Assembly: GCA_003345555.1 (NCBI GenBank) | Contig: PRDJ01000001.1 | Location: 1-32,000 of the forward strand | DNA length: 32,000 nucleotides | Direction: 5' to 3' | Source: Candidatus Thorarchaeota archaeon | GTDB taxonomy: Archaea; Asgardarchaeota; Thorarchaeia; Thorarchaeales; Thorarchaeaceae | Part shown: positions 4,872-20,615 of the stretch, piece by piece | Position numbering within the stretch: position 1 is the stretch's first letter | How the letters are laid out: each line of letters starts with the position of its first letter | Program-made: the position numbers and the translations under genes | Notes under the pieces: generated by a model | The model's database searches: none | The model's input: the letters and a program-made list of their open reading frames with translations, nothing else | Told to the model about the DNA's origin: nothing

Positions 4872-6827
4872 ATGGAGAAGGTTCTGATGGTGTTAAAGAG
4901 CGAGCAAGTATCGAAACTCGCTGAGGTTTTCGGAGACCGACTCGTCACAGCCAAACATGAGATGATTATTCATTCCCAGGATGTCGGTAGTCTGCCAAAA
5001 CAAGTCGGCTGGCTCATGAACACTAAGCCGGATGCAATCATACAGCCCCAATCTCCGGAGGACATTCAGTTTCTTTATGAGTTTGCTCGGGCTCAGAAGG
5101 TCCCGCTCATCCCCAGGGGTGCTGGAACCTCGGGCTACGGGGGAGCGATACCACGTAACGGCGGCATCGTTGTTGACATGCGCAGGATGGATCGAGTACT
5201 CAATATCGACAAGGAGAACCTTACAGTTACTGTTGAGCCGGGCATATCATGGCTCAATCTGCAGTTCGAACTGAACCGTCAAGGTCTGGATTTGAGATGC
5301 TATCCCTCTTCTGGCATATCGGCCACAGTGGGCGGCTGGGTTGCTCAGGGTGGAGATGGTATCGGATCACTGAAATACGGCAAAATCAATGATAATGTGG
5401 TTGAACTTGAGGTTGTTCTGCCAGAGGGTAGAATTGGCAATACCAAGGACATTGAGCTCTTTTGCGACACAGAAGGTATACTTGGAATCATAACGAAAGT
5501 CACCCTGAAGGTCAGGCAACTCACTCCAATGCGTTCCGTTGTAGTCAGCTTTCCCGAGAATTACTTGATGACATTCGCAATCGAGAAGATTCTGGCTGAG
5601 GGACCATTGCCTTTCACAATAAGATTCGAGGAGAGCAAGTACACGGACCTGAAGAAGAGAGTGTGGGAGTCAGACAAACCTTTCCCATTCCCAGTGAGTC
5701 ACTGTGTTCTCCTTGTTTCTTATGAAGGAACCGAGGACGAGATTCGGGAAGGCTTCGAAGTCGTGAGGCGGGTGGCCGAGGAAATGAAGGGCGCCGTCTA
5801 CGATGATTGGGTTGCAGAGCACGAATGGGAAGACAGGTTCTACCCAATGAAGATCAAGAAGATGGGCCCGAGTCTTGTTGTCGGACAGGCATTCGCCCCA
5901 ATCGAGAGCCTCGAAGGCATTCTGGACGATTTCCAGTTCGAACAGGCCTCAGCGAGAGCTGGCATTGATGGCTATGTGACTTCAAAAACTGGGGTCACGA
6001 TGATGGGTTACTTCCTAGAGGATGAGCGTCGCCACTTCTTCCTGCTCTCTTGGTCCCAAGCCTTCGTAGTATTCAAAATTGCTCAACGTCATGGGGGGCA
6101 CCCTCATTCGACGGGGATTTGGTTTGCCAATTATGCGCCCGCCTATTTCGGCACACGACGCTTGGCTAGAATCCGAGCGGCGAAGGTGGAGTTCGACCCC
6201 GAGGAGATATCTAACCCCGGCAAGATATTCGCGTACTGGCTTCCTTTCATACTCAGGGTTGGCAAGTACTTCATGTGGCTCGGCTTCGATCTTTTTAGAA
6301 ACGGGTTCGGCCGAATTGCGCCTATTATTCTTAGGTGGCTGCAGAATCTCCCGCCCATCAAGTGGATTCTTAGATGGGGCCGGGCATACAGTCCTTGGCC
6401 GGTGCAATATGGCCTCGGTTGCTGTATGGTTGAAGGTGCGGCCGCGGTCGCATCTCGCTGGGATCTTGAGAGATTCGGAATGCTGCCTTTGTTTGGCCCG
6501 CGACAGTGCGATGTGCTCTGGGTCTCTGGTTCACTGACCAAGAAGATGGCACCGCGTCTCCGCCGCATATACGAACAGATGCCTGATCCGAAATTTGTCA
6601 TATCGTTCGGTCAGTGTGCTGCGAGTGGCGGCGTGTTCTGGGATGGATACTCCTTGGTGACGCCGCCTGACAAGGTGATCCCGGTAGATGTCTACTTGCC
6701 GGGCTGTCCTCCCAAGCCGTCGGACTTCGTGAGGGCACACCTGATTCTTGAGAACAAGATTCGAGCGGGAACAACCTATTGGCAACGGAGATACGAGAAT
6801 CAGGATGCCATGGGCTTCGTGAAGTAG
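4872..6827 (+). CDS. nuoB: Fusion protein: VAO/GlcD-family FAD-linked oxidoreductase (aa about 10-452), amphipathic linker, then NuoB/FpoB-type [4Fe-4S] subunit (aa about 505-640)
   Basis: FAD domain motifs: PRGAGTSGYGG, ATVGGWVAQGG..G.GSLKYG, EGILGIITKVTLK, and C-terminal FDPEEISNPGK (6195). NuoB motifs: GLGCCMVE (6417-6431), PRQCDVLWVSGSLTKKMAP.LRRIYEQMPDPKFVISFGQCAASGG, VDVYLPGCPP. One uninterrupted frame. Confidence 0.92.
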   Translation: MEKVLMVLKSEQVSKLAEVFGDRLVTAKHEMIIHSQDVGSLPKQVGWLMNTKPDAIIQPQSPEDIQFLYEFARAQKVPLIPRGAGTSGYGGAIPRNGGIVVDMRRMDRVLNIDKENLTVTVEPGISWLNLQFELNRQGLDLRCYPSSGISATVGGWVAQGGDGIGSLKYGKINDNVVELEVVLPEGRIGNTKDIELFCDTEGILGIITKVTLKVRQLTPMRSVVVSFPENYLMTFAIEKILAEGPLPFTIRFEESKYTDLKKRVWESDKPFPFPVSHCVLLVSYEGTEDEIREGFEVVRRVAEEMKGAVYDDWVAEHEWEDRFYPMKIKKMGPSLVVGQAFAPIESLEGILDDFQFEQASARAGIDGYVTSKTGVTMMGYFLEDERRHFFLLSWSQAFVVFKIAQRHGGHPHSTGIWFANYAPAYFGTRRLARIRAAKVEFDPEEISNPGKIFAYWLPFILRVGKYFMWLGFDLFRNGFGRIAPIILRWLQNLPPIKWILRWGRAYSPWPVQYGLGCCMVEGAAAVASRWDLERFGMLPLFGPRQCDVLWVSGSLTKKMAPRLRRIYEQMPDPKFVISFGQCAASGGVFWDGYSLVTPPDKVIPVDVYLPGCPPKPSDFVRAHLILENKIRAGTTYWQRRYENQDAMGFVK

Positions 6828-6925
6828 TTCCTTCACCGGCGGCAATTCCCGCTCTTGGAGTCAGACTTGCGGTCAGCAATACTTATGTTCCAGAGATTCC
6901 CCTTCGAGGCCGGTCGGTTGACACA

Positions 6926-7393
6926 ATGGGGACCCTCAGGGAAGATAGCGACTTCTATTGTTTGCTTTGGCTTGGAGTAGCCTTGCTGAGCGCATACTAC
7001 TTCAACATCGGATACTTGGGGCTCACAATACCACTGTATCTCAGCACGGTACAGGTTTACTTGCTTCCGTTGGTAGGTTGCCCCTTAATCCTAGTTGTAG
7101 TCTTCGTTTCCTACCTGAGCCCATCCCGAGGCAGGTACAAACCCGTGGCATTCGCTCTGGCGATTGTTGTGTCTCTGTACTTCTACATCGTTGTGAGTTC
7201 ATTACCGCCGGTTGCAGGAATCACTTCCGATACATTGTTTCTATTATCGTGGGGAATTGGCAGCGCTCTTCTTGTGGCATCTGGTTTCTCGATAATGCCG
7301 GGTCGGTCGGAAACAACTAGCCCTGGTATTCTGGATGTTGGATCTCTCAAGTACGGCATTCCGACCGAAGAGGAGCACGAGGAAGCAGCCTAG
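6926..7393 (+). CDS. Hypothetical membrane protein (about 4 TM, 155 aa)
   Basis: Four hydrophobic segments and an acidic tail. ATG 6926 chosen over the longer ORF, which overlaps the preceding gene. Confidence 0.65.
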   Translation: MGTLREDSDFYCLLWLGVALLSAYYFNIGYLGLTIPLYLSTVQVYLLPLVGCPLILVVVFVSYLSPSRGRYKPVAFALAIVVSLYFYIVVSSLPPVAGITSDTLFLLSWGIGSALLVASGFSIMPGRSETTSPGILDVGSLKYGIPTEEEHEEAA

Positions 7394-7812
7394 CCGCGTC
7401 TGATAGTTTCAGCACTTGCTTTCGGAATGGCCAAGTCTCGCTTGGCTCTGGAAAGCTCACGGAGCCAGCTTAATGATGCCACCGTGAGAAGAACACCGAA
7501 TGCGGCCCAAAGAAACAGAATCAGACCGCTGTAAGGTTGTGGGAATAGGACGAGATTCAAGTACCCTTCGATTCCACCAAACACAGCGGACAGGAGAGTC
7601 AATGCTATTCGTGCCATCCTAGTTCTTGAAAATGATATCGCCAATGTTGATGCTACGAAGAGAGCATAGTCAACGAGTACGAGACCATAGAGAAGGTCTA
7701 TGACGCCTGCGTCTGCAACCCACCAAACATACAACGCTATCATTGCAAGGCCGACTGCGAAGACAGTATAGTAGACCAGGATACTCTTCGATTTTGACAC
7801 CAACTCTATCAC
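7390..7812 (-). CDS. Hypothetical membrane protein (about 4 TM, 140 aa)
   Basis: GTG start, four hydrophobic segments, 4-nt convergent overlap with its neighbour. Confidence 0.65.
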   Translation of the reverse strand: MIELVSKSKSILVYYTVFAVGLAMIALYVWWVADAGVIDLLYGLVLVDYALFVASTLAISFSRTRMARIALTLLSAVFGGIEGYLNLVLFPQPYSGLILFLWAAFGVLLTVASLSWLRELSRAKRDLAIPKASAETIRRG

Positions 7813-7926
7813 CGAAGGAACGGTTAGGGGTTTGCTTTCCCGTCAATTGCGGTCGCACATATAACTGCTTTGAAGCGAAGAAAAATCCTTAACGCAGAGA
7901 GCTTCATGGGGCGGTCGTGGTTGAAT

Positions 7927-8256
7927 ATGGGCACGTATGTTGAGAACATACACTTCCCGCTCGGAGCCTCGGAAGCGATACGTCGTGTTAACAAGTGGCA
8001 TGAAAGTGAGGGAAAAGACTTCAAAGTACTTGAGAAGAGCGAGAACCATATTGAGATTAGACACAAGACACTTCATATCATAATCACTCTCATACCTGAT
8101 CACCTACGGATTGAGGCTTGGGTCGGGGGTATAACGAAATACTCTATCGCACCAGATGTAATAGTTGGCGCCCTTGCTCGGCGCCAAGGCTGGAAGGAAT
8201 ACCAGACTCTGAAACAGGTGCTGATATCGGGTATAGAACCTAGATCTCTTGGTTGA
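7927..8256 (+). CDS. Hypothetical soluble protein (about 109 aa)
   Basis: Globular alpha/beta-like composition. Start uncertain (7870, 7906 or 7927). Confidence 0.55.
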   Translation: MGTYVENIHFPLGASEAIRRVNKWHESEGKDFKVLEKSENHIEIRHKTLHIIITLIPDHLRIEAWVGGITKYSIAPDVIVGALARRQGWKEYQTLKQVLISGIEPRSLG

Positions 8257-8498
8257 CAGGCCGAATCCCAGATTCGTCAACGAGCATTTGCAGGATGGCG
8301 TTCGGGAAAGAAGGCTATCCATTGTAGAGAGGTGCTGGCCAGGGTGTCATTGTCGTTTCAGCTAGACCAGACATCTCATCAGATATCTTGGCGGACACTG
8401 CCAGTATTGTTTCCGAATCTGTGTTGCACCGGAATCAAATGAGTCCTCGTCTGACATCGTATGAAAACTGGCTAACGCCGGAGCATCTGTCGAAGTCC

Positions 8499-8506
8499 TT
8501 TTATAA
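8499..8506 (+). promoter_or_regulatory. Candidate archaeal TATA box for the nuo operon
   Basis: TTTTATAA preceded by CGAAG (BRE-like), about 100 nt upstream of the nuoA ATG. It is the clearest TATA-like element in this intergenic region. Confidence 0.5.
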
Positions 8507-8604
8507 CCCATCAGGCAGGCTGGCCCTCTGACATGGCAGAGCGTCCCAGTGTTCCCTGACTGCGTCTGCTCACTTAGAACTATGACTAGGAACGGTCCCG
8601 CTGA

Positions 8605-9048
8605 ATGAGGCTCTTCATTGACTTCAATTATGTCTTCGTTTGGGCCCTTCTTGCGGTAGCCCTAGTCGTCATCATGCTTGCGGCATCATGGATACTCCGC
8701 CCTCACATTCTACAGAACTCAGACAAGACTTCCACGTACGAATGCGGCGAAGAGCCGATAGGTCCCGCAAGAGTCTCCTATCCTTACAGCTACTTCCTCT
8801 ACACCATTCTCTTTGTCATCGTTGATGTCATGGGCGCGTTCCTGTGGTTGCTCTCAGTGTCCCAGTTCAGAACTACAGAGGCAGCTGTCTGGCAGATGCT
8901 GTTCTTTGTACTGCTAATCACAGCCGGAATTGGTTTTGCCCTGCGAATGTTCCCGCAGACGATTCTCAGCGGGAAAGAAACCCTCAAGCTCTATAGAGAG
9001 GGAAAGGCGAGACGCGATTCTCAGAAGACGGAGGCGGCCCAGCAATGA
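8605..9048 (+). CDS. nuoA: Complex I-like subunit A (NuoA/FpoA)
   Basis: Three TM segments with the loop motif KTSTYECGEEP and YFLYTILFVIVDV. Confidence 0.9.
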   Translation: MRLFIDFNYVFVWALLAVALVVIMLAASWILRPHILQNSDKTSTYECGEEPIGPARVSYPYSYFLYTILFVIVDVMGAFLWLLSVSQFRTTEAAVWQMLFFVLLITAGIGFALRMFPQTILSGKETLKLYREGKARRDSQKTEAAQQ

Positions 9049-9701
9049 TGATGCAGGGTGCAGAGGTCTTGCTTGAACAGGCAGAGTTCATTGGCGTAGC
9101 TGTCATCGTTCTTGTTCTTGCCTATCTCGCGCTCGAACACAAGGAGATCACCTATGCTGTATTCTTCTTCGGATTCATGGCGGCAGCTGTGGCAGGTTTC
9201 TACCTTCTGCTTGAGGCGCCTTTCTTGGTAGGATTGCAGATAGCTGTCTACACGGGAGGGATAAGTGCCCTGATCATATTCGGTGTCCTCCTCCTTCCTC
9301 GTGCTCAGGACTCCTCGCTGGAAATCTTTCAAACTGCCCGAAGGCGAAGGTTTGGGCTGCTTCTTTCAGGTGCCGTCATGTTACTCTCTGCAATTCTAGC
9401 GTTCTTCTATCCTTGGTCTGACCTACCCCCAGTGAGCCCTCCTGAATTAGCTCAAAGCCTTCAAGGGTTGGCCGCTTGGCTCTGGAGCGGTCATGGGATT
9501 TACGTCGAGATGGTTGCACTGATCATGCTTACTGCCCTTGTCGGGTCCGTTGCCATTCTGAAGATGATGAAGGCGGAAGAACTTCGTCCCTTGACCACAG
9601 AGTCTCATCCAGAGTCTGCGGGAAAGAAGGATGAATCCGGTTCCTCGTCTGCACCCCAAACTGAGACCGGAGAAGGAGCGAAGGAGGCTGGCCCCGAGTG
9701 A
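9045..9701 (+). CDS. nuoJ: Complex I-like subunit J (NuoJ/FpoJ)
   Basis: LQIAVYTGGISALIIFGVLL (NuoJ QxxVYxG motif); five TM segments; ATGA overlap with nuoA. Confidence 0.88.
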   Translation: MMMQGAEVLLEQAEFIGVAVIVLVLAYLALEHKEITYAVFFFGFMAAAVAGFYLLLEAPFLVGLQIAVYTGGISALIIFGVLLLPRAQDSSLEIFQTARRRRFGLLLSGAVMLLSAILAFFYPWSDLPPVSPPELAQSLQGLAAWLWSGHGIYVEMVALIMLTALVGSVAILKMMKAEELRPLTTESHPESAGKKDESGSSSAPQTETGEGAKEAGPE

Positions 9702-10018
9702 TTCCCTTGAGCTGGTACCTAATCGTGGCATTCATGCTCATTGGTCTTGGAGCCTATGGAATGATAACCAAGAGGAACTTGATTCGAATAATCATAGGCG
9801 CTGAGATAATGGCCAATGGAGTTAACATAGCGTTGGTTGCGTTTTCAGTTTACACCGAAGTCTTCACCTTCACTGGCCAATCTCTTGTCATCATCGTAAT
9901 AGCAGTGACAGCTGCTCATACGGCACTGGCAATGGCGCTCATGCTGATGTACAACGCGCGATATTCCACGGTGGACCTTGGAGAGCCGGTTGTTTCGGAG
10001 GGACGAAGGCATGAGTGA
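9698..10018 (+). CDS. nuoK: Complex I-like subunit K (NuoK/FpoK)
   Basis: GMITKRNLIRIIIGAEIMANGVNIALVAFS; three TM segments; GTGA overlap; GGAGG RBS upstream. Confidence 0.9.
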   Translation: MIPLSWYLIVAFMLIGLGAYGMITKRNLIRIIIGAEIMANGVNIALVAFSVYTEVFTFTGQSLVIIVIAVTAAHTALAMALMLMYNARYSTVDLGEPVVSEGRRHE

Positions 10019-10544
10019 GCCAGATATCTATCTCACAACGGTGTCACCCTCGGCGGTTGCTCAGGCAGTGAGAAGCAAATGTCCAGATGTCACGCAGAAG
10101 AGTATGCAGGGGAACCGTCTAGAGCTGATTGTTCCGCCCTCAAGAATCCGGGATGTCGTGGGCCTGCTTAACGAACTGATTTCTGACGCTCTTCCAGAGT
10201 CCGTCTTTGGCATCGACCTTCAGAATGACCGATACGAACTGATCTATGTGTTTTGGTCCCACCTCAACAGAATGCTGTGCCAGCTTCGTGTGAGTCTGGA
10301 AGGTACCGTACCCGAGGTCGACTCTGTCTGTGACATATTCCCGGGATTGGAGTGGCACGAACGCGAGACCCATGAGATGTTCGGCATAGGTTTCAAGGGC
10401 CATCCCGACCTGAGATTGCTTTTGCTCCCGGAGGAGCTGAGCGGCAAGTACCCGCTTCGAAAGAGATTCAAAACTGACAGAAGCCGATTGAGCGAAACTG
10501 GATTGCCCGAAGCTAGGCCAGGTTCAAAGGAGGCCGAAACGTAG
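10011..10544 (+). CDS. nuoC: Complex I-like subunit C (NuoC/FpoC)
   Basis: WHERETHEMFGIGFKGHPDLRLLLLPEE...YPLRK motif. ATG 10011 overlaps the nuoK stop by 8 nt. Confidence 0.92.
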   Translation: MSEPDIYLTTVSPSAVAQAVRSKCPDVTQKSMQGNRLELIVPPSRIRDVVGLLNELISDALPESVFGIDLQNDRYELIYVFWSHLNRMLCQLRVSLEGTVPEVDSVCDIFPGLEWHERETHEMFGIGFKGHPDLRLLLLPEELSGKYPLRKRFKTDRSRLSETGLPEARPGSKEAET

Positions 10545-11680
10545 TGTGCCCTGAGATTGTTGATGAGGCAGCTCAGGTCTGGTTCGGACCCCAGCACGTA
10601 TCGGCTCATGGGTGGGCTACGAAGCTCACAATCGTCGGGGACTACATTGTTGAATGCGATCCGAATGCAGGTTACTTTCACCGCTCGGCGGAGAAGTGCC
10701 TTGAGTTCAGGAACTTCCAGCAGGGCGCACTGATTATGGAACGGCTCTGTATGCTTGAGGCTTTCCTTGCAGAGTATCCTTACGTCAAGGCAGTTGAACA
10801 AATCGCCCAGCTTGATGTGCCAGAGCGAGCAAGGGTGATGAGAACTATAATGATGGAGGCGAGCAGGATTCACAGCCTCCAATTCTGGTGGGGTCAATTC
10901 GGGGCCGAGCTGGGCCTCTTTGCAATGACGCTCTGGCCTTGGGTCGATCGTGAGTATTTCCTCGATGCATTTGAAGAGCTGACCGGTTCTCGACATGCAG
11001 TCTCCTACAGCGCACCTGGTGGCGTCAAGTACGACTTCAACGAGAAGTCTATCAAGATGCTGGAGCGGGCTCTGGATAGGCTTGAGGATCGGCTTCCAAA
11101 GTTTCGTGACATGATTCTGAGAAGCCCCACTTTCAAGTTGCGAACCAAGAAGATTGGACTGTTTGACGCAGCACAGGGTTTGAAGTGGGGGTTGAGTGGG
11201 CCGAACATAAAGGCGTGTGGCATCCCGATGGATTTGCGAAAGGACGACCCCGACCCGAATCTCGCGTACGAGATGTGTGACTGGGAAGTGCCAGTGACGA
11301 CCAATGAGGATCATCCGGGTCAATGCGATGCCTATGACAGGATGTCGCAACGGTTCAAGGAAATCGAGACCTCAGCCAGTATCATCCGTCAACTGCTGCC
11401 TCAAGTGCCTGAAGGTCCTATCATAGACCCCAAAGCCCGCGCGAAGGCAAACAGGCTGCCCGAGGGAGAGGCATACGGTCGTGTCGAGGGCACAAGGGGA
11501 GTAACAACGCTCTTTCTCAAGACTGCTGACAAGGCTCAGACTCCTTACAGAGCAAAGATACGCGGCCCATGTTTCGCCTCGTACTACTCGTTGAAGCATT
11601 TGGTTCCTGGATCGACATTCGCTGACTTCGTCGTAATATTCGGCAGCCTCGACCCATACCCGGGGTGGTGGGATCGCTGA
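10544..11680 (+). CDS. nuoD: Complex I-like subunit D (NuoD/FpoD/MbsL family; not a [NiFe] hydrogenase large subunit)
   Basis: FGPQHVSAHG, GYFHRSAEK, RVEGTRG and YRAKIRGPCF motifs, ending GSLDPYPGWWDR. Both NiFe CxxC motifs are absent. Confidence 0.9.
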   Translation: MCPEIVDEAAQVWFGPQHVSAHGWATKLTIVGDYIVECDPNAGYFHRSAEKCLEFRNFQQGALIMERLCMLEAFLAEYPYVKAVEQIAQLDVPERARVMRTIMMEASRIHSLQFWWGQFGAELGLFAMTLWPWVDREYFLDAFEELTGSRHAVSYSAPGGVKYDFNEKSIKMLERALDRLEDRLPKFRDMILRSPTFKLRTKKIGLFDAAQGLKWGLSGPNIKACGIPMDLRKDDPDPNLAYEMCDWEVPVTTNEDHPGQCDAYDRMSQRFKEIETSASIIRQLLPQVPEGPIIDPKARAKANRLPEGEAYGRVEGTRGVTTLFLKTADKAQTPYRAKIRGPCFASYYSLKHLVPGSTFADFVVIFGSLDPYPGWWDR

Positions 11681-12822
11681 TGGGGGTCGGCACGATTCTT
11701 CAGATAGACATCGTGGGCTGGCTGAGCGGACTGCCCTCCTGGATTTACCTCGTAATCAGCGGGCTGTTCAGCCTTGTCTGGGCCTTCTTCAACTGGATAT
11801 GGAGCATTGTCGTCTGGTTCTGGGCACTGGCTATTTCCCAAATATGGTGGCTGTTCAAGGCCATAGTATTCCCGGGGTTAGTCTTCATACTGTTCTCCAT
11901 CATCTTCTCCGTGTGGTTCACGAGAAAGGTATGGGGCCGAGTGCAAGCAAGACGGGGTCCGTTTCACCTCGGTAAGTACGGGGGCCTCCAGGTATTCGCA
12001 GACGCGATAAAGCTAATTGGAAAAGAAATCGTGATACCTGACAAAGCCAAGCGATGGATGTACAGAATACTTCCATCTCTGCTACTTATCGCAGTTCTCG
12101 TTCCATTTGCGTTTATTCCATGGAGCAACGAATGGTATATCGCGGATCTCTCAGTGAGCCTAATAGTAACGTTTGCATTTCTTACAGTTGTTCCTGTGGT
12201 ATCTCTGCTTTCGGGCTGGATTAGCGGATCGAAGTACACACTCATTGGTGGCTTCAGGGCAGCTAACAATCAATTCGCTGCCGAGATACCCTTGATCATT
12301 TCCTCTGTTGGTCCTGCGATGCTTGCCGGCTCGCTAAGCATCATGGGCATTTCACAAGCTCAGTCAAGTCTTTGGTACTTTCTTCTGCTTCCTGTAAACT
12401 GCGTGACATTCATGGTGAGTGCTACCGTGATAACTGCGCTCGTGCCTTTCGATGCCCCGGTCGCAGACTCGGAGATTCTGTTTGGCTGGAGGACCGAGTT
12501 CAGCGGCATATACTTCACCATGACCTATTTTGCAGAGTTCGCTAAGCAGTTGCTGTTCTCCGGTCTCATAGTAGCTCTGTTCTTCGGAGGTTCATACGGC
12601 TTTGCATTCATGCCTCCTGTCCTGAACTTCATCTTCAAGTTCCTAATCGTTCTCTTCTTCATGATCTTGGTGACATCATCATTCTACAGGATGAGACAGG
12701 ATCAGGTCACTCACTTCTGCTGGAAGTATCTTCTGCCGTTGTCTCTGCTCAACGTTGTCATTGCGATGTTTGCGATTGTGTATGTCCCGGGATTGGCACA
12801 GCTGCTGGGAATCGGAGGTTGA
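11680..12822 (+). CDS. nuoH: Complex I-like subunit H (NuoH/FpoH) with a Trp-rich N-terminal extension
   Basis: RVQARRGP...GGLQVFADAIKLIGKE, SKYTLIGGFR and PFD....SEI..G..TEFSG motifs; TGATG overlap with nuoD. Confidence 0.9.
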   Translation: MGVGTILQIDIVGWLSGLPSWIYLVISGLFSLVWAFFNWIWSIVVWFWALAISQIWWLFKAIVFPGLVFILFSIIFSVWFTRKVWGRVQARRGPFHLGKYGGLQVFADAIKLIGKEIVIPDKAKRWMYRILPSLLLIAVLVPFAFIPWSNEWYIADLSVSLIVTFAFLTVVPVVSLLSGWISGSKYTLIGGFRAANNQFAAEIPLIISSVGPAMLAGSLSIMGISQAQSSLWYFLLLPVNCVTFMVSATVITALVPFDAPVADSEILFGWRTEFSGIYFTMTYFAEFAKQLLFSGLIVALFFGGSYGFAFMPPVLNFIFKFLIVLFFMILVTSSFYRMRQDQVTHFCWKYLLPLSLLNVVIAMFAIVYVPGLAQLLGIGG

Positions 12823-12829
12823 TGAAAGG

Positions 12830-13261
12830 ATGGGTTTCTTTAGCACGCTCGGTGACATATTCAGGGTACTGCGTCATACATTCCGTCAGACGATGACTCG
12901 ACCTTTCACCTACTTCTATCCATTTGAAGACCGGTACTATCCAGACACCACGAGGGGCAGACATATTCACATCAGGAAGAACTGCACGGCGTGCGCACAG
13001 TGTGTGAAAGCTTGTCCTACGATCGCGATAAGAATCGACAAGCAGGACCGCATGTACGAGAAGGATGCCGCCCTGCACTTTGATTATACACGCTGCATAT
13101 TCTGCGGTCTCTGTGTTCAGGCATGCAAGTTCAATGCACTCTTCCACACCAAAATTGTTGATCTCAGTGAAGAAACGAGAGAAGACCTGCAATACGGTCC
13201 TGACAGAATGGGCACACTCGAAAGGAAACCCCTCAAGTGGCGCGGGAGGACATTCAGGTAA
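12830..13261 (+). CDS. nuoI: Complex I-like subunit I (NuoI/FpoI), 2x[4Fe-4S]
   Basis: CTACAQCVKACP and CIFCGLCVQAC motifs; TRGRH and FDYTRC; GGAGGT RBS. Confidence 0.93.
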   Translation: MGFFSTLGDIFRVLRHTFRQTMTRPFTYFYPFEDRYYPDTTRGRHIHIRKNCTACAQCVKACPTIAIRIDKQDRMYEKDAALHFDYTRCIFCGLCVQACKFNALFHTKIVDLSEETREDLQYGPDRMGTLERKPLKWRGRTFR

Positions 13262-14775
13262 TGCAGGTCGTACAACTCCCATTCATGACGATTTCGCTTG
13301 CCATGTTGTTCTTTGGTGCGTTGGCTATCTATTTGCTGAAGAGCAGGCTGGGTGCGGGGGCAGGTAAAGCAGCAGCGGCTATATCATTCGCTTCCCTTGT
13401 GTTGATGATTCCGCCATTCTTCCGAGTTGTGGTGGAAGGCGGGCCTGCGATGGAGTCCGCAACTTGGTCCCAAGTGTTCGGCAGAGTCGGTCTCTACCTT
13501 GATGGCATCGCGTTTCCGATTACATTCGCAGTTGTGGTTCTTGGATTCCTGTCGGTGGTCTATGCCATCGGGTACACTCGAGAGATTCCGAACCAGCCAT
13601 CATTCTTTGCGAACCAGCTATTTTTCATCATGGGGATGCAATGGGTGACATTGGCCACGAATGTCATAGAGTTCTTCATAGCATGGGAGATCATGCTTGT
13701 CCCCACGTACTTCCTGATCCTGTTCTGGGGATTGCCCGAGACCAAGAAGCGCACTGCATTGAAGTTCTGGTTATACACACAGTCCGGCGCATTATGTATC
13801 TTCGTGGGATTCGGTCTACTGTACTATTTCGTAGGCTCATTCGAGCTCTCGGTCATCCAATCACTCCTGCCCACGTACGTGGGCTCGATTGACACTCTGA
13901 AGCTCATCTTTGTCTTGCTCGCCGCAGGGTTCCTCGTCAAGATGGCTGTCTTTCCTATTCACTGGTGGCTGCCCCCAGTCCATGCTGAGGCCCCAACACC
14001 AATCTCCGTTCTACTCTCAGGCGCAATGATTGAGACCGGTGCTTATGCCTTGGTCAGGTTTGGAACAATCATACTAGGAATTGCCGCTTCATCTCTTTCT
14101 GTATGGATTGCTGCAATTGGAGTAGTCACTATGTTCTACGGAGGCCTGATGGCACTGGCCCAGTCAGATATCAAGAGGTTACTTGCGTACTCATCTGTCT
14201 CCCAAATGGGCTATGTTCTCTTTGCGCTTGGCACATTCGCAACTTATGGTGTGTCGGGTGGCCTGTTTCATCTTATCAATCATGCATTCTCAAAGGGCCT
14301 CCTATTCATGACAGCAGGGGTCGTCATTCACGAGACGAAGGTGAGAGACATTGCTCAGCTGGGCGGGTTGTCGAACAAGATGCCAATCACAGCATTCGCC
14401 GCTGCTGTGGGGGCGCTGAGCATCGCAGGGAGTCCTCCGTTGTCGGGCTTCGCCAGCGAATGGATGATGTTCCTCGGAGGATTCCAAGCGGCACTGCCCG
14501 GTGCAGGTGGTTTGGCCCGACCCGAGTTCTTTGTTCTAGCCGTGCTTGGAGTATCAAGCACAATCATCAGCGCTGGGTATATGCTGAGATATCTGTGGAA
14601 AGTCTTCTTGGGACCGACACCGGAGAGCCTTGAGCACGTGAGAGAAGGACCTAGGTCAATGACCGTCCCCATGGTGACTCTGTCGTGCCTTATAGTCCTG
14701 TTCGGAATATTCCCGGGGCTTGCGCTTTCTGTGATAAGCCCGGCGGTGAACGCTATAGCTAACATAATTCCTTGA
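13261..14775 (+). CDS. Additional (fourth) proton-translocating antiporter-like subunit, HyfB/MrpD/NuoM-like
   Basis: AWEIMLVP, VKMAVFPIHWWLPPVHAEAPTPIS, DIKRLLAYSSVSQMGY, HLINHAFSKGLLF and PPLSGFASEW motifs. About 504 aa. TAATG coupling to nuoI. Confidence 0.9.
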   Translation: MQVVQLPFMTISLAMLFFGALAIYLLKSRLGAGAGKAAAAISFASLVLMIPPFFRVVVEGGPAMESATWSQVFGRVGLYLDGIAFPITFAVVVLGFLSVVYAIGYTREIPNQPSFFANQLFFIMGMQWVTLATNVIEFFIAWEIMLVPTYFLILFWGLPETKKRTALKFWLYTQSGALCIFVGFGLLYYFVGSFELSVIQSLLPTYVGSIDTLKLIFVLLAAGFLVKMAVFPIHWWLPPVHAEAPTPISVLLSGAMIETGAYALVRFGTIILGIAASSLSVWIAAIGVVTMFYGGLMALAQSDIKRLLAYSSVSQMGYVLFALGTFATYGVSGGLFHLINHAFSKGLLFMTAGVVIHETKVRDIAQLGGLSNKMPITAFAAAVGALSIAGSPPLSGFASEWMMFLGGFQAALPGAGGLARPEFFVLAVLGVSSTIISAGYMLRYLWKVFLGPTPESLEHVREGPRSMTVPMVTLSCLIVLFGIFPGLALSVISPAVNAIANIIP

Positions 14776-14785
14776 GGTGCGCCAG

Positions 14786-17002
14786 ATGCTGTTCGGACTA
14801 CCCTACTATCTGATTCTCGTCATTCCGCTGGCAGGTTCACTGGTTGTTCCTCTCGCTGGCCGCTTCAGTGAAAAGCTGAGAGACTGGACGCCCGCTTTAC
14901 TCATGGGCATTACGATGATTTTGTGCTGGTCTCTCTTCCCAGACATCGGTAGTCCTCAGGGGCCCACGAGTTGGCCTTGGATTGAGGCGTTGGGCCTTCG
15001 TTTCGAAGTCCTGCTGGATCCTCTGTCCGTCATCATGGCAGTTCTTTCGAGTACGCTATGCTTCCTGATCTACGTTTACAGCACGGAATACATGGCTCAC
15101 GAAGGAGATCGTGACAGGTTCTTCTTCCTAATGCTTGCTTTCGGGGGCGGCATGCTGACCCTTGTGCTCAGCAACAACCTTCTGATTGCATTCATCGGGT
15201 GGGAGATAATGGGCTTCTGTTCCTATGGTCTCATCGGTTTCTGGAACGATAGGAAGAACCCACCCGAGACCGACCCGACTGGTATTGAATCAAAGAATCC
15301 ACTGCTCCGCTTCGAAACAGAAGGTCAGTACAACACTCACTGCGGAACAAAGGCATTCGTCGTAACGAGAGTCGGGGACGCCTTCATGCTCGGAGGAATT
15401 CTCCTTCTGTTCATGTTCACCGGCACCTTCTCATTTACAGAGATGGCTGCCGATGCTCAAAGCTGGTGGCAGATTCTCTCTTCTGTTGGACTGCTATTCC
15501 CGACCTTTCTTCTCATATTCGCAGGTGCCATTGGAAAGTCAGGACAAGCTCCTCTCGACGTCTGGCTTCCCGAAGCAATGGCCGGACCAACGTCGGTCTC
15601 AGCACTGATTCACGCAGCAACCATGGTCAAGGCTGGGATATACATCACGGCTCGTTTTCTGGTCACCATGGCAAGCGCTGCAGACTCCGGAGTCGTTCCC
15701 GAGATTCTGCCTCCGTCTTTCGACTCCGCTGCGTCGTTCTTTACAGTTGTTGCCATAGTCGGGGGCGTTACAGCATTCATGACGGCTACCATGGGAATGG
15801 TTTCCAATGAGCTGAAGCAGGTTCTGGCGTTCTCGACTTTGAGTCAGCTCGGATACATGATGCTAGCGATGGGCACAGGGGGGCTACTCATCAGCTATCA
15901 GGAAGCATACATGAGCGGGATTCTGCACATCATAAGTCACGGAGCTTTCAAGGCTCTTCTCTTTCTTGCGGCGGGCGGAGTCATTCACGTTGTTCACACG
16001 AAGTACCTCAGCAAGATGGGCGGCCTCAAGCAGTACATGCCCAAAACATTCATTGTAATGTGGATTGGTGTGCTTGCTCTTTCAGGCATTCCGCCGTTCT
16101 CAGGTTTCTGGTCGAAGGATTCGATAATCGAGTACGCATATGACCTCGCGCTCCACAATGATGTTGGTATCTTCCTCTTCATTCTGGCTATTCTTGCAGC
16201 AGCTTGTACAATCTTCTACAGCATAAGGCTCATGGGGATGGCTTTCTATGGGCCTTCACGCGGCGTCGCATCAACCGAGGATATGAGTGCCTCACTAGGT
16301 CACGAGTCTCACGGGCACTCGGAGCAAGAACCGCATACCGAGCATGAGGAGCCGCATGACCCCGGCCGGGCAATGATGTGCCCTCTATACATTCTCGCTG
16401 CTTTCACAATCGTAGCCTTTGCTGTCTTTCCGTTTGTTGAGGCCGTGCTGTTCAGCGAAGGTCCTATGACAGTATCAGTGTGGACAAGCGTTCTCACAGA
16501 GATGGTGCTTGTGAAACTGACAATGCCGGGATTGGTGCCTTTCGTGTTCACATTGGGGGCATTGGCCTTGGGAGGAATTCCGGCCTATATTCTTTACATT
16601 GGACGGTCGGACCGGCCGAATACGGCGATACCCGATGCCGGGATCAGGAAGCGGCTATACGGTTTTCTCAAGCATCGTTGGTACATCAATGAATTCTACT
16701 ATTGGATTGTCGGTGGCGTTCTCAGATTCACGAGTTCTTGGAAGTCGAAGATAGATGACCGTATCATAGACGGCATTGATTTCGGCTCGGCTCGTACGGC
16801 AATCTCGGCGTCCAAGCGAATAAGATGGTTTGACGATCACATAGTTGATGGATTTGCAGAGGAGATATCGACGGCAAGCGTCGCTGCGTCAGAGTCGAGC
16901 GAGGTAATCGAGACCGGAAGAGTCAACGACTATGTGGCTGTTCTCATGTTCGGTGTCGGAGTTCTGGTTATTCTTGCTTTGATTTCCTTGGGGGTGATCT
17001 AG
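14786..17002 (+). CDS. nuoL: Complex I-like subunit L (NuoL/FpoL) with an extended transverse helix
   Basis: GWEIMGFCSYGLIGFW, KAFVVTRVGD, GKSGQAPLDVWLPEAMAGPTSVSALIHAATMV, FSTLSQLGY, HGAFKALLF and GFWSKD motifs; His-rich loop; C-terminal HL helix plus TM16. ATG 14786 follows a GAGGTG RBS (GTG 14777 is an alternative). Confidence 0.95.
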   Translation: MLFGLPYYLILVIPLAGSLVVPLAGRFSEKLRDWTPALLMGITMILCWSLFPDIGSPQGPTSWPWIEALGLRFEVLLDPLSVIMAVLSSTLCFLIYVYSTEYMAHEGDRDRFFFLMLAFGGGMLTLVLSNNLLIAFIGWEIMGFCSYGLIGFWNDRKNPPETDPTGIESKNPLLRFETEGQYNTHCGTKAFVVTRVGDAFMLGGILLLFMFTGTFSFTEMAADAQSWWQILSSVGLLFPTFLLIFAGAIGKSGQAPLDVWLPEAMAGPTSVSALIHAATMVKAGIYITARFLVTMASAADSGVVPEILPPSFDSAASFFTVVAIVGGVTAFMTATMGMVSNELKQVLAFSTLSQLGYMMLAMGTGGLLISYQEAYMSGILHIISHGAFKALLFLAAGGVIHVVHTKYLSKMGGLKQYMPKTFIVMWIGVLALSGIPPFSGFWSKDSIIEYAYDLALHNDVGIFLFILAILAAACTIFYSIRLMGMAFYGPSRGVASTEDMSASLGHESHGHSEQEPHTEHEEPHDPGRAMMCPLYILAAFTIVAFAVFPFVEAVLFSEGPMTVSVWTSVLTEMVLVKLTMPGLVPFVFTLGALALGGIPAYILYIGRSDRPNTAIPDAGIRKRLYGFLKHRWYINEFYYWIVGGVLRFTSSWKSKIDDRIIDGIDFGSARTAISASKRIRWFDDHIVDGFAEEISTASVAASESSEVIETGRVNDYVAVLMFGVGVLVILALISLGVI
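16751..16906 (+). repeat. Degenerate 26-codon tandem duplication inside the NuoL amphipathic helix
   Basis: IDDRIIDG at 16751 and FDDHIVDG at 16829 are exactly 78 nt apart; the two units share 7/26 identities plus I/V and I/F conservative pairs. Confidence 0.75.
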
Positions 17003-18520
17003 GTGCAGATTCTATTTGCTCAGCAAATCATCGACATGCTTCCCCTCGGCATACTTCCATTCATGCTTATACTCCCTCTCATCGCCTCAGTTATCGCCTA
17101 TGCTGTTCGCGGACGAGCCGCAAGGATTCTCACGCTTACTGTAACAGTTACTGAGCTACTCCTTTCATTTGTTCTTGCAATGGCAATCAATCCCGCCATA
17201 ATTAGTGGCGACCCAAACGCAGGTATGAAGTATCTCTGGAACTTCGTCATGGGACAGATTGTATCAGGCGGAGGCTCTACAGAACTCCAGATTGCACTCG
17301 GTGTTGACGGCATCTCGGTTGCCATGATCGTGCTGTCCAATTTCGTAGTGATGATAGCCACAATCAGCTCGAATCACATACACAAGTCCGAGGGCCTGTA
17401 CTATGCTCTAATGCTCCTTTTGCAGGTGGGGCTTATCGGAGTATTCATGTCCCTTGACCTCATTGGATTCTTCATCTTCTGGGAGCTAGTCCTGATTCCA
17501 ATGTTCTTCATCATCGGGCGATGGGGTGAGGAAGGTTGCCAGCATGCTGCTATCAAGTTCTTCATCTACACTCATCTTGGCTCTGCGGTGATGCTCGTCG
17601 CCTTCTTCGTTCTGTACTTCGTAGCCGTCCCACATACCTTTGACATGATAGCGCTCCGGAGTATGGGGCTGCCTCCAATGGTTCAGCTTGGATTTGCACT
17701 TGCAGTGTTCATGGGCGCGGGTGTGAAGCTGCCTGTCTGGCCGCTGCACAACTGGCTGCCGTGGGCTCATGTAAAAGCTCCGACACCTGGCTCTGTGATT
17801 CTTGCTGGCATACTCCTGAAGATGGGCGGTTACGGATTCATTCGGCTTGGGGTTTGGATGGTTCCAGACGCCTTTGCGAGATTGAGTATTCCACTCGCCG
17901 TGCTTGCGGTGTTCACGTGTATCTATGCGGCGTTCACAGCGATGGCTCAGACCGACCTAAAGAGTATGGTCGCCTACACTTCGATAAATCACATGGCTTG
18001 GGTTTTGCTCGGCGTTGCCATAGGGACAGCCACAGCACTACAGGGAGCAGTCTACATGATGGTCTCTCATGGAGTTATCATCTCCGTCATGTTCATTGTT
18101 GCAGGACAGCTCAAGTACTCCGCAGGTTCCAGAGAAATCCCCCAAGTCAAAGGATTGATGGTGCAAGCTCCGCGATTGGCGTCAGTGTTCATCTTTGCAT
18201 CATTTGCCACGTTCGGCCTTCCGGGTCTGAGTGGGTTCATCGCAGAGGCACTGATTCTTTTTGGATCGGTGAAGGTTTACGTATGGACTGCGTTAATCAC
18301 TCTGGGAGTGTTTCTGACAGTAGGCTACATTCTGTGGACATTGAACAGAATCGTATTCAGTGATGCTAACCCTGAGAAGCCGGTGACGGAGGCACCTTGG
18401 AGCGACCTTATTGCGCCCTTGATTACACTGATACCGGTAGTTATCTTGGGAGTGTGGCCTGACCTCCTGCTCGGGTTAGTGTCGCCGGTAGTTTCTTTCA
18501 TTGTTGGGGGTGTGCCATAG
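17003..18520 (+). CDS. nuoM: Complex I-like subunit M (NuoM/FpoM)
   Basis: FWELVLIPMFFIIGRWG, KFFIYT, VKLPVWPLHNWLPWAHVKAP, LAGILLKMG, YTSINHM, SHG and GFIAE motifs. Confidence 0.95.
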   Translation: MQILFAQQIIDMLPLGILPFMLILPLIASVIAYAVRGRAARILTLTVTVTELLLSFVLAMAINPAIISGDPNAGMKYLWNFVMGQIVSGGGSTELQIALGVDGISVAMIVLSNFVVMIATISSNHIHKSEGLYYALMLLLQVGLIGVFMSLDLIGFFIFWELVLIPMFFIIGRWGEEGCQHAAIKFFIYTHLGSAVMLVAFFVLYFVAVPHTFDMIALRSMGLPPMVQLGFALAVFMGAGVKLPVWPLHNWLPWAHVKAPTPGSVILAGILLKMGGYGFIRLGVWMVPDAFARLSIPLAVLAVFTCIYAAFTAMAQTDLKSMVAYTSINHMAWVLLGVAIGTATALQGAVYMMVSHGVIISVMFIVAGQLKYSAGSREIPQVKGLMVQAPRLASVFIFASFATFGLPGLSGFIAEALILFGSVKVYVWTALITLGVFLTVGYILWTLNRIVFSDANPEKPVTEAPWSDLIAPLITLIPVVILGVWPDLLLGLVSPVVSFIVGGVP

Positions 18521-20019
18521 TGTTTCAGCTTTTCACACCGATTGTCGATCTCATACGCGCCATTCTGAGTCCTATCACGCAGCAATTGCTTCAGTTCATC
18601 CCCTCAGATTGGCTTGGGTCAATGCCGGCTCTTACTCTTGTCGGGTTTGCAGTGATTGCCTTGGTCGTGGGCATTCGATGGAACCCGCTTCCTGTCAGCT
18701 TCATTGGAGTGCTGGTGGTTACAATCGAAATGATTGTTCTTGACCCGGTGTCCTCTTTTGGCGGCCTGTTCGTTAGAGATGCGTTTTCTGACTTCTTCAT
18801 TTACATCATTCTGATAGTCGGCTTCCTTGTCTTGATGTCATCCACCCTCCACAGCGGAGACCAGGGTCCTTACAACTTCCTACTGCTCATGTCGTTTGCA
18901 GGAGCTATCTTGGTAGTGACGGCTACCGATCTCATTGCATTGTTTCTTGCGTGGGAACTGATGTCCACCCCCACCTACGTTCTTACTGCGCTGAGTCCGA
19001 ATCGTGGAGCTGTCGATGGAGCAACGAAGTACTTCGTTATGGGCCTGATGGCCACGACACTCATGATATTCGGAATCGCTCTTGTTTATGGTGTCACAGG
19101 CCAAACTAGTCTATCAGTGCTGTCGTCGACTGTCGCGACAATCTGGAGTTCCGGCCCTGGACTATCCCCAGCGGCATACACTCTGATGCTCGCCATGATT
19201 CTCTTCGTGATATCATTCGGATTCAAAGTCGGCATCTTTCCCGGTTGGATGTGGGTACCTGATACCTATTCGACTGCTGACGGCAGTGTTACGTCGTATC
19301 TAGCAGGTGCGACTAAGAAAGCGGGTGTCAGCGCACTTGTCCGAATCTTGATGGTTGCGTTCATTGTTGCAAGGCTCAGCTGGGCTCCCCTAATAGTCGG
19401 AGTATCGATTCTAACTATGGTAATTGGAAATGTGCTCGCATTGGCGCAACGTAAAATCATGCGGATGCTGGCATACTCGAGTATTGCGATGATGGGCTAC
19501 TTGATGATAGGGCTCGCTGCAGGCACGGAACTCGGTGTAGCTGCGGCTTTCTTCCAAGCTTTTGTTCACGCTCTGATGAAGACAGGAGCTTTCATCTTGG
19601 TTTGGACAATCTCAGTGCGTTTGGCCCGGGATGTCACATACGACGACCTAGCGGGATTGAGTCAGAGGGCTCCGCTTGCGTCAGCGATGTTCGCAGTACT
19701 GATGCTTGCTCTTGCAGGGATGCCACTGACTGCTGGCTTTTGGTCCAAACTTATACTGTTTCAGAGTGCTGTTGAGGTCGGTATGTGGTGGCTTGCTCTG
19801 ATTGGGCTCCTGAATTCGGTGTTCTCATTGGGTTACTACCTAAGAGTGCTGAAGTACTGCTACATGATCGAACCGAAGGATGGATCTCCGCTGAAGCTTG
19901 CTAGCGTTCCGGTCATGGCTGTTGTTCTATGCGTTGTTGGTGTTATCGCATTCTTTGTCTTTCCGGGTGCCATCCTCGACTACGCGATTGGGGCTGCCGC
20001 AGGAATCGTGGTACCCTAG
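18520..20019 (+). CDS. nuoN: Complex I-like subunit N (NuoN/FpoN)
   Basis: AWELMSTPTYVL, ATKYFVMG, FKVGIFP.W.WVPDTY, RMLAYSSIA and GMPLTAGFWSK motifs; TAGTG overlap with nuoM. Confidence 0.93.
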   Translation: MFQLFTPIVDLIRAILSPITQQLLQFIPSDWLGSMPALTLVGFAVIALVVGIRWNPLPVSFIGVLVVTIEMIVLDPVSSFGGLFVRDAFSDFFIYIILIVGFLVLMSSTLHSGDQGPYNFLLLMSFAGAILVVTATDLIALFLAWELMSTPTYVLTALSPNRGAVDGATKYFVMGLMATTLMIFGIALVYGVTGQTSLSVLSSTVATIWSSGPGLSPAAYTLMLAMILFVISFGFKVGIFPGWMWVPDTYSTADGSVTSYLAGATKKAGVSALVRILMVAFIVARLSWAPLIVGVSILTMVIGNVLALAQRKIMRMLAYSSIAMMGYLMIGLAAGTELGVAAAFFQAFVHALMKTGAFILVWTISVRLARDVTYDDLAGLSQRAPLASAMFAVLMLALAGMPLTAGFWSKLILFQSAVEVGMWWLALIGLLNSVFSLGYYLRVLKYCYMIEPKDGSPLKLASVPVMAVVLCVVGVIAFFVFPGAILDYAIGAAAGIVVP

Positions 20020-20168: not shown

Positions 20169-20615
20169 ATGGGATTTCTGAGTAAACTTCAGGCGCCGAA
20201 GGCAACCGTAGCAGTGATTCTCGACAAGGGAACCTACAGTCTCAGAGAGCCGCTGCAAGGTAAGCTTGACGTCTCGTCATCCGAGGAGTTCGACGCGGAC
20301 GAACTGCGTATTGAGTTCTGGGTTAGTGAATGGACTAAGGCCACCCAACAGAAACAGGTCGGACAGCAGACCGTACCCGTAACCGCCGAGCAAAACATCA
20401 AACTTCACCAAGGCAAGCTTACGGTGGCTGGAGGAAGACACTTTACATCTGGCTTCCGTGAAAGCATTCCGTTTAGTCTACCGTTGCCGTCAAACGTGCC
20501 CCCAACCTACCGCGGTCAAAACGCCCGCAACACTTGGATGATGAAAGCCGTAATAGGTGTCAAAGGCCGACCTGATGTAGAGACGCGAGATATGGAAGTC
20601 GTCATCACCTATTGA
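20169..20615 (+). CDS. Single-domain arrestin-N/Vps26/SpoOM-like Ig-fold protein
   Basis: LDKGTYSLREPLQGKL and IPFSLPLPSNVPPTYRGQNARNTWMMKAVI match the arrestin-N pattern (Y..G..V.G.V ... PF.F.LP...PPS..G....I.Y..KA). Confidence 0.7.
   Translation: MGFLSKLQAPKATVAVILDKGTYSLREPLQGKLDVSSSEEFDADELRIEFWVSEWTKATQQKQVGQQTVPVTAEQNIKLHQGKLTVAGGRHFTSGFRESIPFSLPLPSNVPPTYRGQNARNTWMMKAVIGVKGRPDVETRDMEVVITY

Follow-up and report, generated by a model that had tools for sequence, protein, structure and literature searches.

A NuoL lateral helix with two 26-residue modules in a four-pump complex I-like operon of a Thorarchaeia genome: a probable old duplication, and a helix length that appears permissive for an added pump

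The lateral helix (HL) of NuoL, one of the antiporter-like subunits of complex I, clamps along the other subunits of that type (PMC3274701). In the '2M' complex I (Chadwick et al. 2018, ISME J 12:2668; compared here by way of the citing papers PMC6606698, PMC9040806, PMC7117926 and PMC7300363), the hallmark, as far as two of these papers describe it (PMC6606698, PMC9040806), is an extra pump combined with a NuoL that is lengthened by about 26 residues, the longer helix being proposed to reach across all four pumps. A conserved HL insertion of 26 residues has also been reported for the MrpD2/NuoL proteins of 'Ca. Manganitrophaceae', where it is present in complexes without extra pumps as well (Yu et al. 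2022, PMC9040806). The subject of this report is a NuoL with a similarly lengthened helix, encoded in 32,000 nucleotides of DNA (hereafter 'the window') from a Candidatus Thorarchaeota archaeon (assembly GCA_003345555.1, contig PRDJ01000001.1, positions 1 to 32,000). The plus strand of the window carries a complex I-like operon with the gene order nuoA-J-K-C-D-H-I-X-L-M-N, in which four genes are antiporter-like. The explanation that is favoured for this locus, with reasonable rather than strong confidence, is that of a four-pump operon in which an ancient duplication of a helix module gave NuoL a longer clamp that would span the fourth pump, the length of the helix being permissive for the additional subunit.

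The features of the window on which this explanation turns are the following:

13237..14775, + strand: X, the fourth antiporter-like subunit gene, directly 5' of nuoL (Proton_antipo_M; best solved relatives MrpA, MbhH and NuoM)
14777..17002, + strand: nuoL, 741 amino acids from a GTG start (Pfam Proton_antipo_N and Proton_antipo_M)
16679..16918, + strand: lateral helix (HL) region, WYINEFY to ETG, 80 amino acids (residues 635-714; from the translation, with an AlphaFold2 helix at 635-701)
16748..16825, + strand: module R1, residues 658-683, KIDDRIIDGIDFGSARTAISASKRIR (the phase of the unit boundaries is arbitrary)
16826..16903, + strand: module R2, residues 684-709, WFDDHIVDGFAEEISTASVAASESSE
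16754..16774, + strand: motif copy 1, DDRIIDG, residues 660-666
16832..16852, + strand: motif copy 2, DDHIVDG, residues 686-692
16922..16987, + strand: C-terminal anchor helix, transmembrane helix 16 (TM16), residues 716-737 (AlphaFold2)

A preliminary description of the window, made from its sequence, had drawn attention to this helix, and the translation bears out the 80 residues that it counted between WYINEFY and ETG (16679-16918). It had also pointed to two occurrences of DDxI(I/V)DG at a distance of 78 nucleotides; DDRIIDG is indeed followed by DDHIVDG at a spacing of exactly 26 amino acids (78 nucleotides), and the starts that it gave for the two copies (16751 and 16829) fall one codon before the true ones (16754 and 16832). 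In one-module NuoLs, among them paralogues from the same Thorarchaeia genomes and other NuoLs of the phylum, the helix measures 53-57 residues between these landmarks; the preliminary description had given about 51-56 for three-pump NuoLs. The HL of the window's NuoL corresponds to 54 + 26 residues, so that the increment equals exactly one 26-residue unit and the helix is, as claimed, longer than that of three-pump NuoLs, by one module (26 residues) when it is set against the three-pump paralogues of the same genomes. An insertion of similar size in published 2M complexes, also invoked in that description, is confirmed by the accounts given in PMC6606698 and PMC9040806.

These measurements suggest a helix that would be built from a 26-residue module with the core D-x-x-(I/V)-(I/V)-D-G, present in two copies here and in one copy in NuoL/ND5/NdhF, with the second copy derived from an old in-frame tandem duplication. 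When the 80-residue stretch was aligned to itself without gaps, the best offset was 26, at which DDRIIDGIDFGSARTAISASK is paired with DDHIVDGFAEEISTASVAASE for a score of 36 over 21 residues (reached by 7 of 1000 shuffles; p 0.007). The same offset was the best one in a profile of the family (109 distinct sequences), where it scored 28.3 (null expectation 15.6 +/- 2.8; p about 0.001). Both motif stretches are highly conserved among 113 aligned family sequences, and of the 119 proteins from a first database search, 117 show the motif twice when scanned with a regular expression. Cyanobacterial NdhF has one copy of the motif (6hum_F 599-612, ...VDYNVVDGV), and HMMER aligned this copy to R1 as well as to R2; the first of the alignments stops on R1, and the second, which is weak, begins at R2 and extends through the xTG motif and TM16. 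A hidden Markov model (HMM) was built from one-module NuoLs only, its E values being computed for a search space of one sequence. In the closest archaeal relatives outside the Thorarchaeia it located paired sites 26 amino acids apart, with E values of 6e-7 and 1e-8 in P0128 and of 2e-4 and 3e-10 in P0132. The HL of the Thorarchaeia proteins aligns with these two from end to end without a gap, from which it follows that the two-module architecture is shared and old.

Further examples of the module came from a search of 1.84 billion representative sequences with the C-terminus of the window's NuoL, which returned 288 matches; the helix was measured among the 150 that were listed. Among the listed matches with a measurable helix, most have an HL of 80-83 residues, and many of them display two clear FD..V(V/I)DG.VN units. 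HL lengths fall on 54 + n x 26, with examples at 80, 106 (P0157) and 158 residues (P0145), and the 158-residue helix (P0145, L054:337-1152) consists of five almost identical units. In P0180, three near-identical units of 27 residues follow one another. (The contig of P0145 is too short for its gene context to be read, and P0193 shows an L-M pair only.) Since recent duplication of the module is directly observed in P0145 and P0180, an old duplication is the most economical account of the second copy in the window, and the extra module of this NuoL is, on the strength of these sequence comparisons, probably an old in-frame tandem duplicate of the canonical D-x-x-(I/V)-(I/V)-D-G module.

The association of the long helix with a fourth pump was followed in a sample of archaeal relatives that had been chosen by whole-protein similarity, and that is hence not biased with respect to the helix. 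Eighteen of 24 related genomes encode an orthologous long NuoL (729-777 amino acids, 67-85% identical); in all 18 the protein carries both motifs, and in all 18 a NuoM-like gene lies directly upstream. The six operons that were fetched in full have the order A-J-K-C-D-H-I-X-L-M-N and an 80-residue HL throughout, and X-L-M-N together with 80 residues was found again in G025 (which has the same gene order) and in two other archaeal assemblies (P0125 and P0128). Several of the same genomes possess a second, three-pump K-L-M-N cluster, in which NuoL has about 675 amino acids and a single module, with a helix of about 54 residues. In a tree of the NuoL core from which HL had been removed, the archaeal two-module NuoLs of four-pump operons form one clade (support of 99 in the Shimodaira-Hasegawa-like approximate likelihood ratio test, SH-aLRT), apart from their one-module paralogues; a test of independent pairs on the NuoL tree could draw on only 3-4 contrasts. 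The duplication is inferred to predate the spread of the operon among Thorarchaeia and related archaea.

A different picture emerged from bacteria. Eighty loci were fetched from species genomes with a bacterial two-module query, a narrower bacterial alignment (a broad one of 31 sequences being too divergent); because of that query the bacterial sample is biased towards two-module helices, and its counts are uninformative on how frequent such helices are among NuoLs as a whole. The numbers of modules and pumps in complete clusters with a measurable helix, taken over all annotated loci and excluding four with one or two pump genes beside nuoL, were as follows:

1 HL module, 3 pumps: 10 complete clusters
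1 HL module, 4 pumps: 0 complete clusters
2 HL modules, 3 pumps: 34 complete clusters (two possibly with four pumps)
2 HL modules, 4 pumps: 16 complete clusters
3 HL modules, 3 pumps: 2 complete clusters (L051 and L125)
3 HL modules, 4 pumps: 1 complete cluster (L046)

Among these loci, all 17 four-pump clusters have at least two modules and none combines four pumps with a one-module HL; four pumps thus appear to require a long helix, in a sample that is biased against the finding of a counter-example. A long helix is clearly not sufficient. The three-pump clusters with two modules (among the bacterial loci L058-L129) are ordinary nuoABCDHIJKLMN operons; Ignavibacteriota, Bacteroidota, Acidobacteriota and Actinomycetota are among the phyla that have them. 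On the tree, the bacterial four-pump NuoLs (from Nitrospira and Chloroflexi) branch from among the two-module NuoLs of three-pump operons. Related three-pump operons with a helix of this length, which the preliminary description had named as contrary to its reading, are absent among the close relatives, where three pumps go with short helices, and present in distant lineages.

The structure of the window's NuoL was predicted with AlphaFold2 for the subunit alone, from an alignment of 61 sequences (mean predicted local distance difference test score, pLDDT, of 77.5; predicted template modelling score, pTM, of 0.80). The model contains a single continuous helix at residues 635-701, which passes through the R1/R2 junction (683/684), then an ill-defined segment at 702-715 and TM16 at 716-737; the block means of pLDDT over R1 are 53-77. 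The added segment is thus modelled as helix across the junction, and not as the loop that had been named as the contrary outcome, in what is a weak test. As an ideal alpha-helix, 26 residues would extend over about 39 Å, a figure obtained by arithmetic rather than by measurement. An increment of that size would let the clamp formed by HL and TM16 span one more antiporter-like subunit, as has been proposed for the bacterial 2M complexes, and it is this published hypothesis, a clamp lengthened to span the fourth pump, that our analysis makes the likeliest for the present operon, at somewhat better than even. A separate feature of the model is a His/Glu-rich loop, GHESHGHSEQEPHTEHEEPHDPG, at residues 497-530 (16265-16366), which lies between two late transmembrane helices, is disordered in the prediction (pLDDT <50) and differs in length among relatives.

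Both parts of this explanation, the origin of the module and its use, have to be weighed against others. As regards origin, the similarity between the two units is largely confined to eight residues: the offset-26 signal of the family profile comes mostly from the DD.IIDGI core (8 columns), the remainder of the unit being weak, R1 and R2 are identical at 7 of 26 residues and 31 of 78 nucleotides, and the one-module HMM matches the units of the Thorarchaeia proteins marginally (E 0.02-0.2). All of this counts against a duplication, and would agree with an inserted segment from some other source, or with a gradual lengthening, in which a second DDxIVDG arose by convergence as a motif for docking on antiporter-like subunits. 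Such an origin is nevertheless considered quite unlikely: the increment is exactly 26 residues, the motif is repeated in phase with it (p 0.007 and 0.001), both units align, one of them weakly, to the single canonical unit, and elsewhere the module occurs in near-identical recent tandem copies, at helix lengths that fall on 54 + n x 26 (80, 106, 158). Tandem Repeats Finder reported no array in the DNA, and this result, together with the 31 of 78 matching nucleotides, indicates an old event whose traces are detectable at the level of the protein motif only. The 'visible' tandem duplication of the preliminary description is therefore a likely duplication, given the significance of offset 26, that is visible in the motif and not beyond it. 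Mere chance, by which two heptapeptides of separate origin and no meaning would happen to be alike within one long, charged helix, could gain something from the periodic composition of amphipathic helices, which inflates self-similarity; it is nonetheless very improbable, as offset 26 outscores all other offsets, including others at the helical period, both motifs are conserved in the family sequences examined, and further archaeal lineages show this architecture again.

As regards the use of the longer helix, several results tell against a clamp whose length is set by a fourth pump: 34 of the 50 complete two-module clusters have three pumps (two perhaps four); on the complete chromosomes G042 and G044, PF00361 genes are present only in two three-pump clusters each, with no orphan pump (two-module three-pump loci at G042:C1:1100634-1105242 and G044:C1:5253453-5258110); P0157 (L051:10001-12124) has three diverged modules in a helix of 106 amino acids, and its operon offers only L, M and N before an F-type ATPase cluster begins. 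Within the phylum of the window, G039 combines two modules with pumps L, M and N only, and L046 (G035:C25; nuoL at 6879-9182, minus strand; operon order B-C-D-H-I-J-K-X-L-M-N) combines three modules (108 amino acids) with four pumps, which is a mismatch with a rule of one module per pump. Finally, pLDDT falls below 50 at residues 690-717 in a NuoL modelled without partner subunits, although low values in HL would be expected for a strap that lacks its partners. An alternative that accommodates these observations holds that the long helix is an inherited variant of the strap, with nothing specific to X; X may then dock distal to NuoL or act elsewhere, and the extra length could provide a longer reach to NuoJ/K/A/H, engage an unrelated membrane partner, or be tolerated slack. 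The occurrence of two- and three-module helices in three-pump operons of many bacterial phyla, in complete genomes that hold no spare pump gene among them, speaks for this alternative, as do the nesting of the Nitrospira and Chloroflexi four-pump NuoLs among two-module three-pump NuoLs and the published record of this insertion from complexes that have no additional pump (PMC9040806). Against it, the association is complete in the archaeal sample, with X directly upstream of every NuoL in the clade, every three-pump paralogue in the same genomes is short-helixed, and no short-helix four-pump cluster was seen; it is accordingly held to be rather unlikely. Long helices occur with three pumps too, so that under the favoured explanation, a clamp spanning the fourth pump, helix length is permissive and not diagnostic. 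The 'molecular ruler' of the preliminary description is upheld only in part, as two modules and three modules each go with three or with four pumps. Its further claim, that the helix gives independent support to the placement of X in the membrane arm, is sustained as to co-occurrence, which is complete in the archaeal relatives sampled, and is weak as to independence, two-module helices being frequent in bacterial three-pump operons; helix length is consistent with X in the arm and is not independent proof of it.

A broader scheme can be put forward more tentatively, in which the strap is modular, its 26-residue module having been duplicated independently in archaea and bacteria (to give 1-5 copies), and the archaeal duplication having taken place alongside the recruitment of an Mrp-like fourth pump, encoded upstream of nuoL, in the clade of the window. 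This is a possible rather than a probable history; were it true, four-pump complex I would have a further origin in the Asgard lineage, separate from that of the bacterial L-M-M-N type, and in bacteria the long strap would often precede or outlive the extra pump.

The remainder of the operon is laid out as follows:

8605..13261, + strand: nuoA-J-K-C-D-H-I, the upstream part of the operon (nuoA at 8605-9048; nuoI ends at 13261)
17003..18520, + strand: nuoM, a true NuoM/ND4 orthologue (E 7e-78 to 8qby_M)
18520..20019, + strand: nuoN

The genes X, L, M and N are contiguous, all contain PF00361, and are the sole PF00361 genes of the 2.28-Mb assembly. For nuoL, database relatives use an ATG that lies 9 nucleotides downstream of the GTG, which would give a protein of 738 amino acids. 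Public NuoL sequences that are near-identical or related to it bear the label Candidatus Thorarchaeota, in agreement with an Asgard host. NuoB is encoded outside the operon, at 4872-6827 (plus strand), where its PF01058 domain makes up the C-terminal part of an FAD oxidase of the VAO/GlcD type (PF01565 and PF02913); this gene for a NuoB-flavoprotein fusion sits 1.8 kb upstream of nuoA, and the same fusion is found near the long operon in the related genomes L031, L032, L034 and L036. Directly 3' of nuoN, a small protein (20169-20615, plus strand) shows a weak match to Arrestin_N (E 8.6e-6, just above the Pfam cut-off), a eukaryote-like domain that is here weakly matched within an Asgard genome.

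Subunit X finds its best solved matches in MrpA (7qru_A) and MbhH (6cfw_H), followed by NuoM; of the complex I chains, NuoM is closer to it than NuoL and NuoN are. That it might be a recent copy of NuoM was considered and ruled out, as it is 30.6% identical to the NuoM of the window and has its best matches in MrpA and MbhH. In the HMMER alignment to MrpA, the sequence around residue 266 or so of X (about 14032-14034) reads ...MIETGAY... where MrpA has ...MVKAGIY..., so that a Glu stands where antiporter-like subunits have a conserved lysine in TM8; in the same alignment, the positions of the TM5 Glu, the TM7 Lys and the TM12 Lys appear to be retained. A different extra subunit occurs in another archaeal assembly (L056, GCA_964473665.1), whose cluster has the order J-K-X'-L-M-N; X' (8521-9993) carries the NuoL-type N-terminal domain PF00662 and no lateral helix, and the extra pump therefore differs in kind between archaeal four-pump operons.

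Set beside the canonical helix (NuoL/Nqo12/ND5/NdhF; 6hum chain F and 8qby chain L), the HL of the window has the same succession of landmarks, with WY(I/F)(N/D)E after TM15, then D-x-x-V-V-D-G, xTG and TM16, and differs from it in having two modules and 80 residues in place of one module and about 54. The 11-subunit nuoABCDHIJKLMN operons of bacteria encode the same helix of 80-83 residues with two clearer FD..V(V/I)DG.VN modules, and differ in that they have three pump genes and NuoLs of another clade. As long helices are common with three pumps, helix length alone is unfit for inferring pump number or proton stoichiometry from genomes. The complex of 'Ca. Manganitrophaceae' is, unlike the present one, bacterial and a five-pump hybrid, and its additional residues are termed an insertion and not a duplication (PMC9040806). 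A full-text literature search, in which the primary 2M paper (Chadwick et al. 2018) was not covered, found no paper that calls the HL insertion a duplication.

The closest parallel is with the 2M complex I as the citing papers present it. Like the 2M complexes described there, the operon of the window contains a fourth PF00361 gene, encodes a NuoL whose HL is about 26 residues longer, and lacks NuoEFG. It departs from those accounts in gene order, with X upstream of nuoL (X-L-M-N) where the extra gene of the 2M type lies between L and N (L-M-M-N), and also in the nature of X, which resembles MrpA, MbhH and NuoM and is not a close copy of NuoM, in its Asgard host, and in its NuoB, which is part of a flavoprotein fusion encoded away from the operon. 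The comparison adds Thorarchaeia to the known range of the four-pump, long-helix '2M' architecture, in a form with another gene order and an Mrp-like extra subunit, and it provides sequence evidence that the 26-residue 'insertion' already known from such complexes is probably a copy of the helix's own module.

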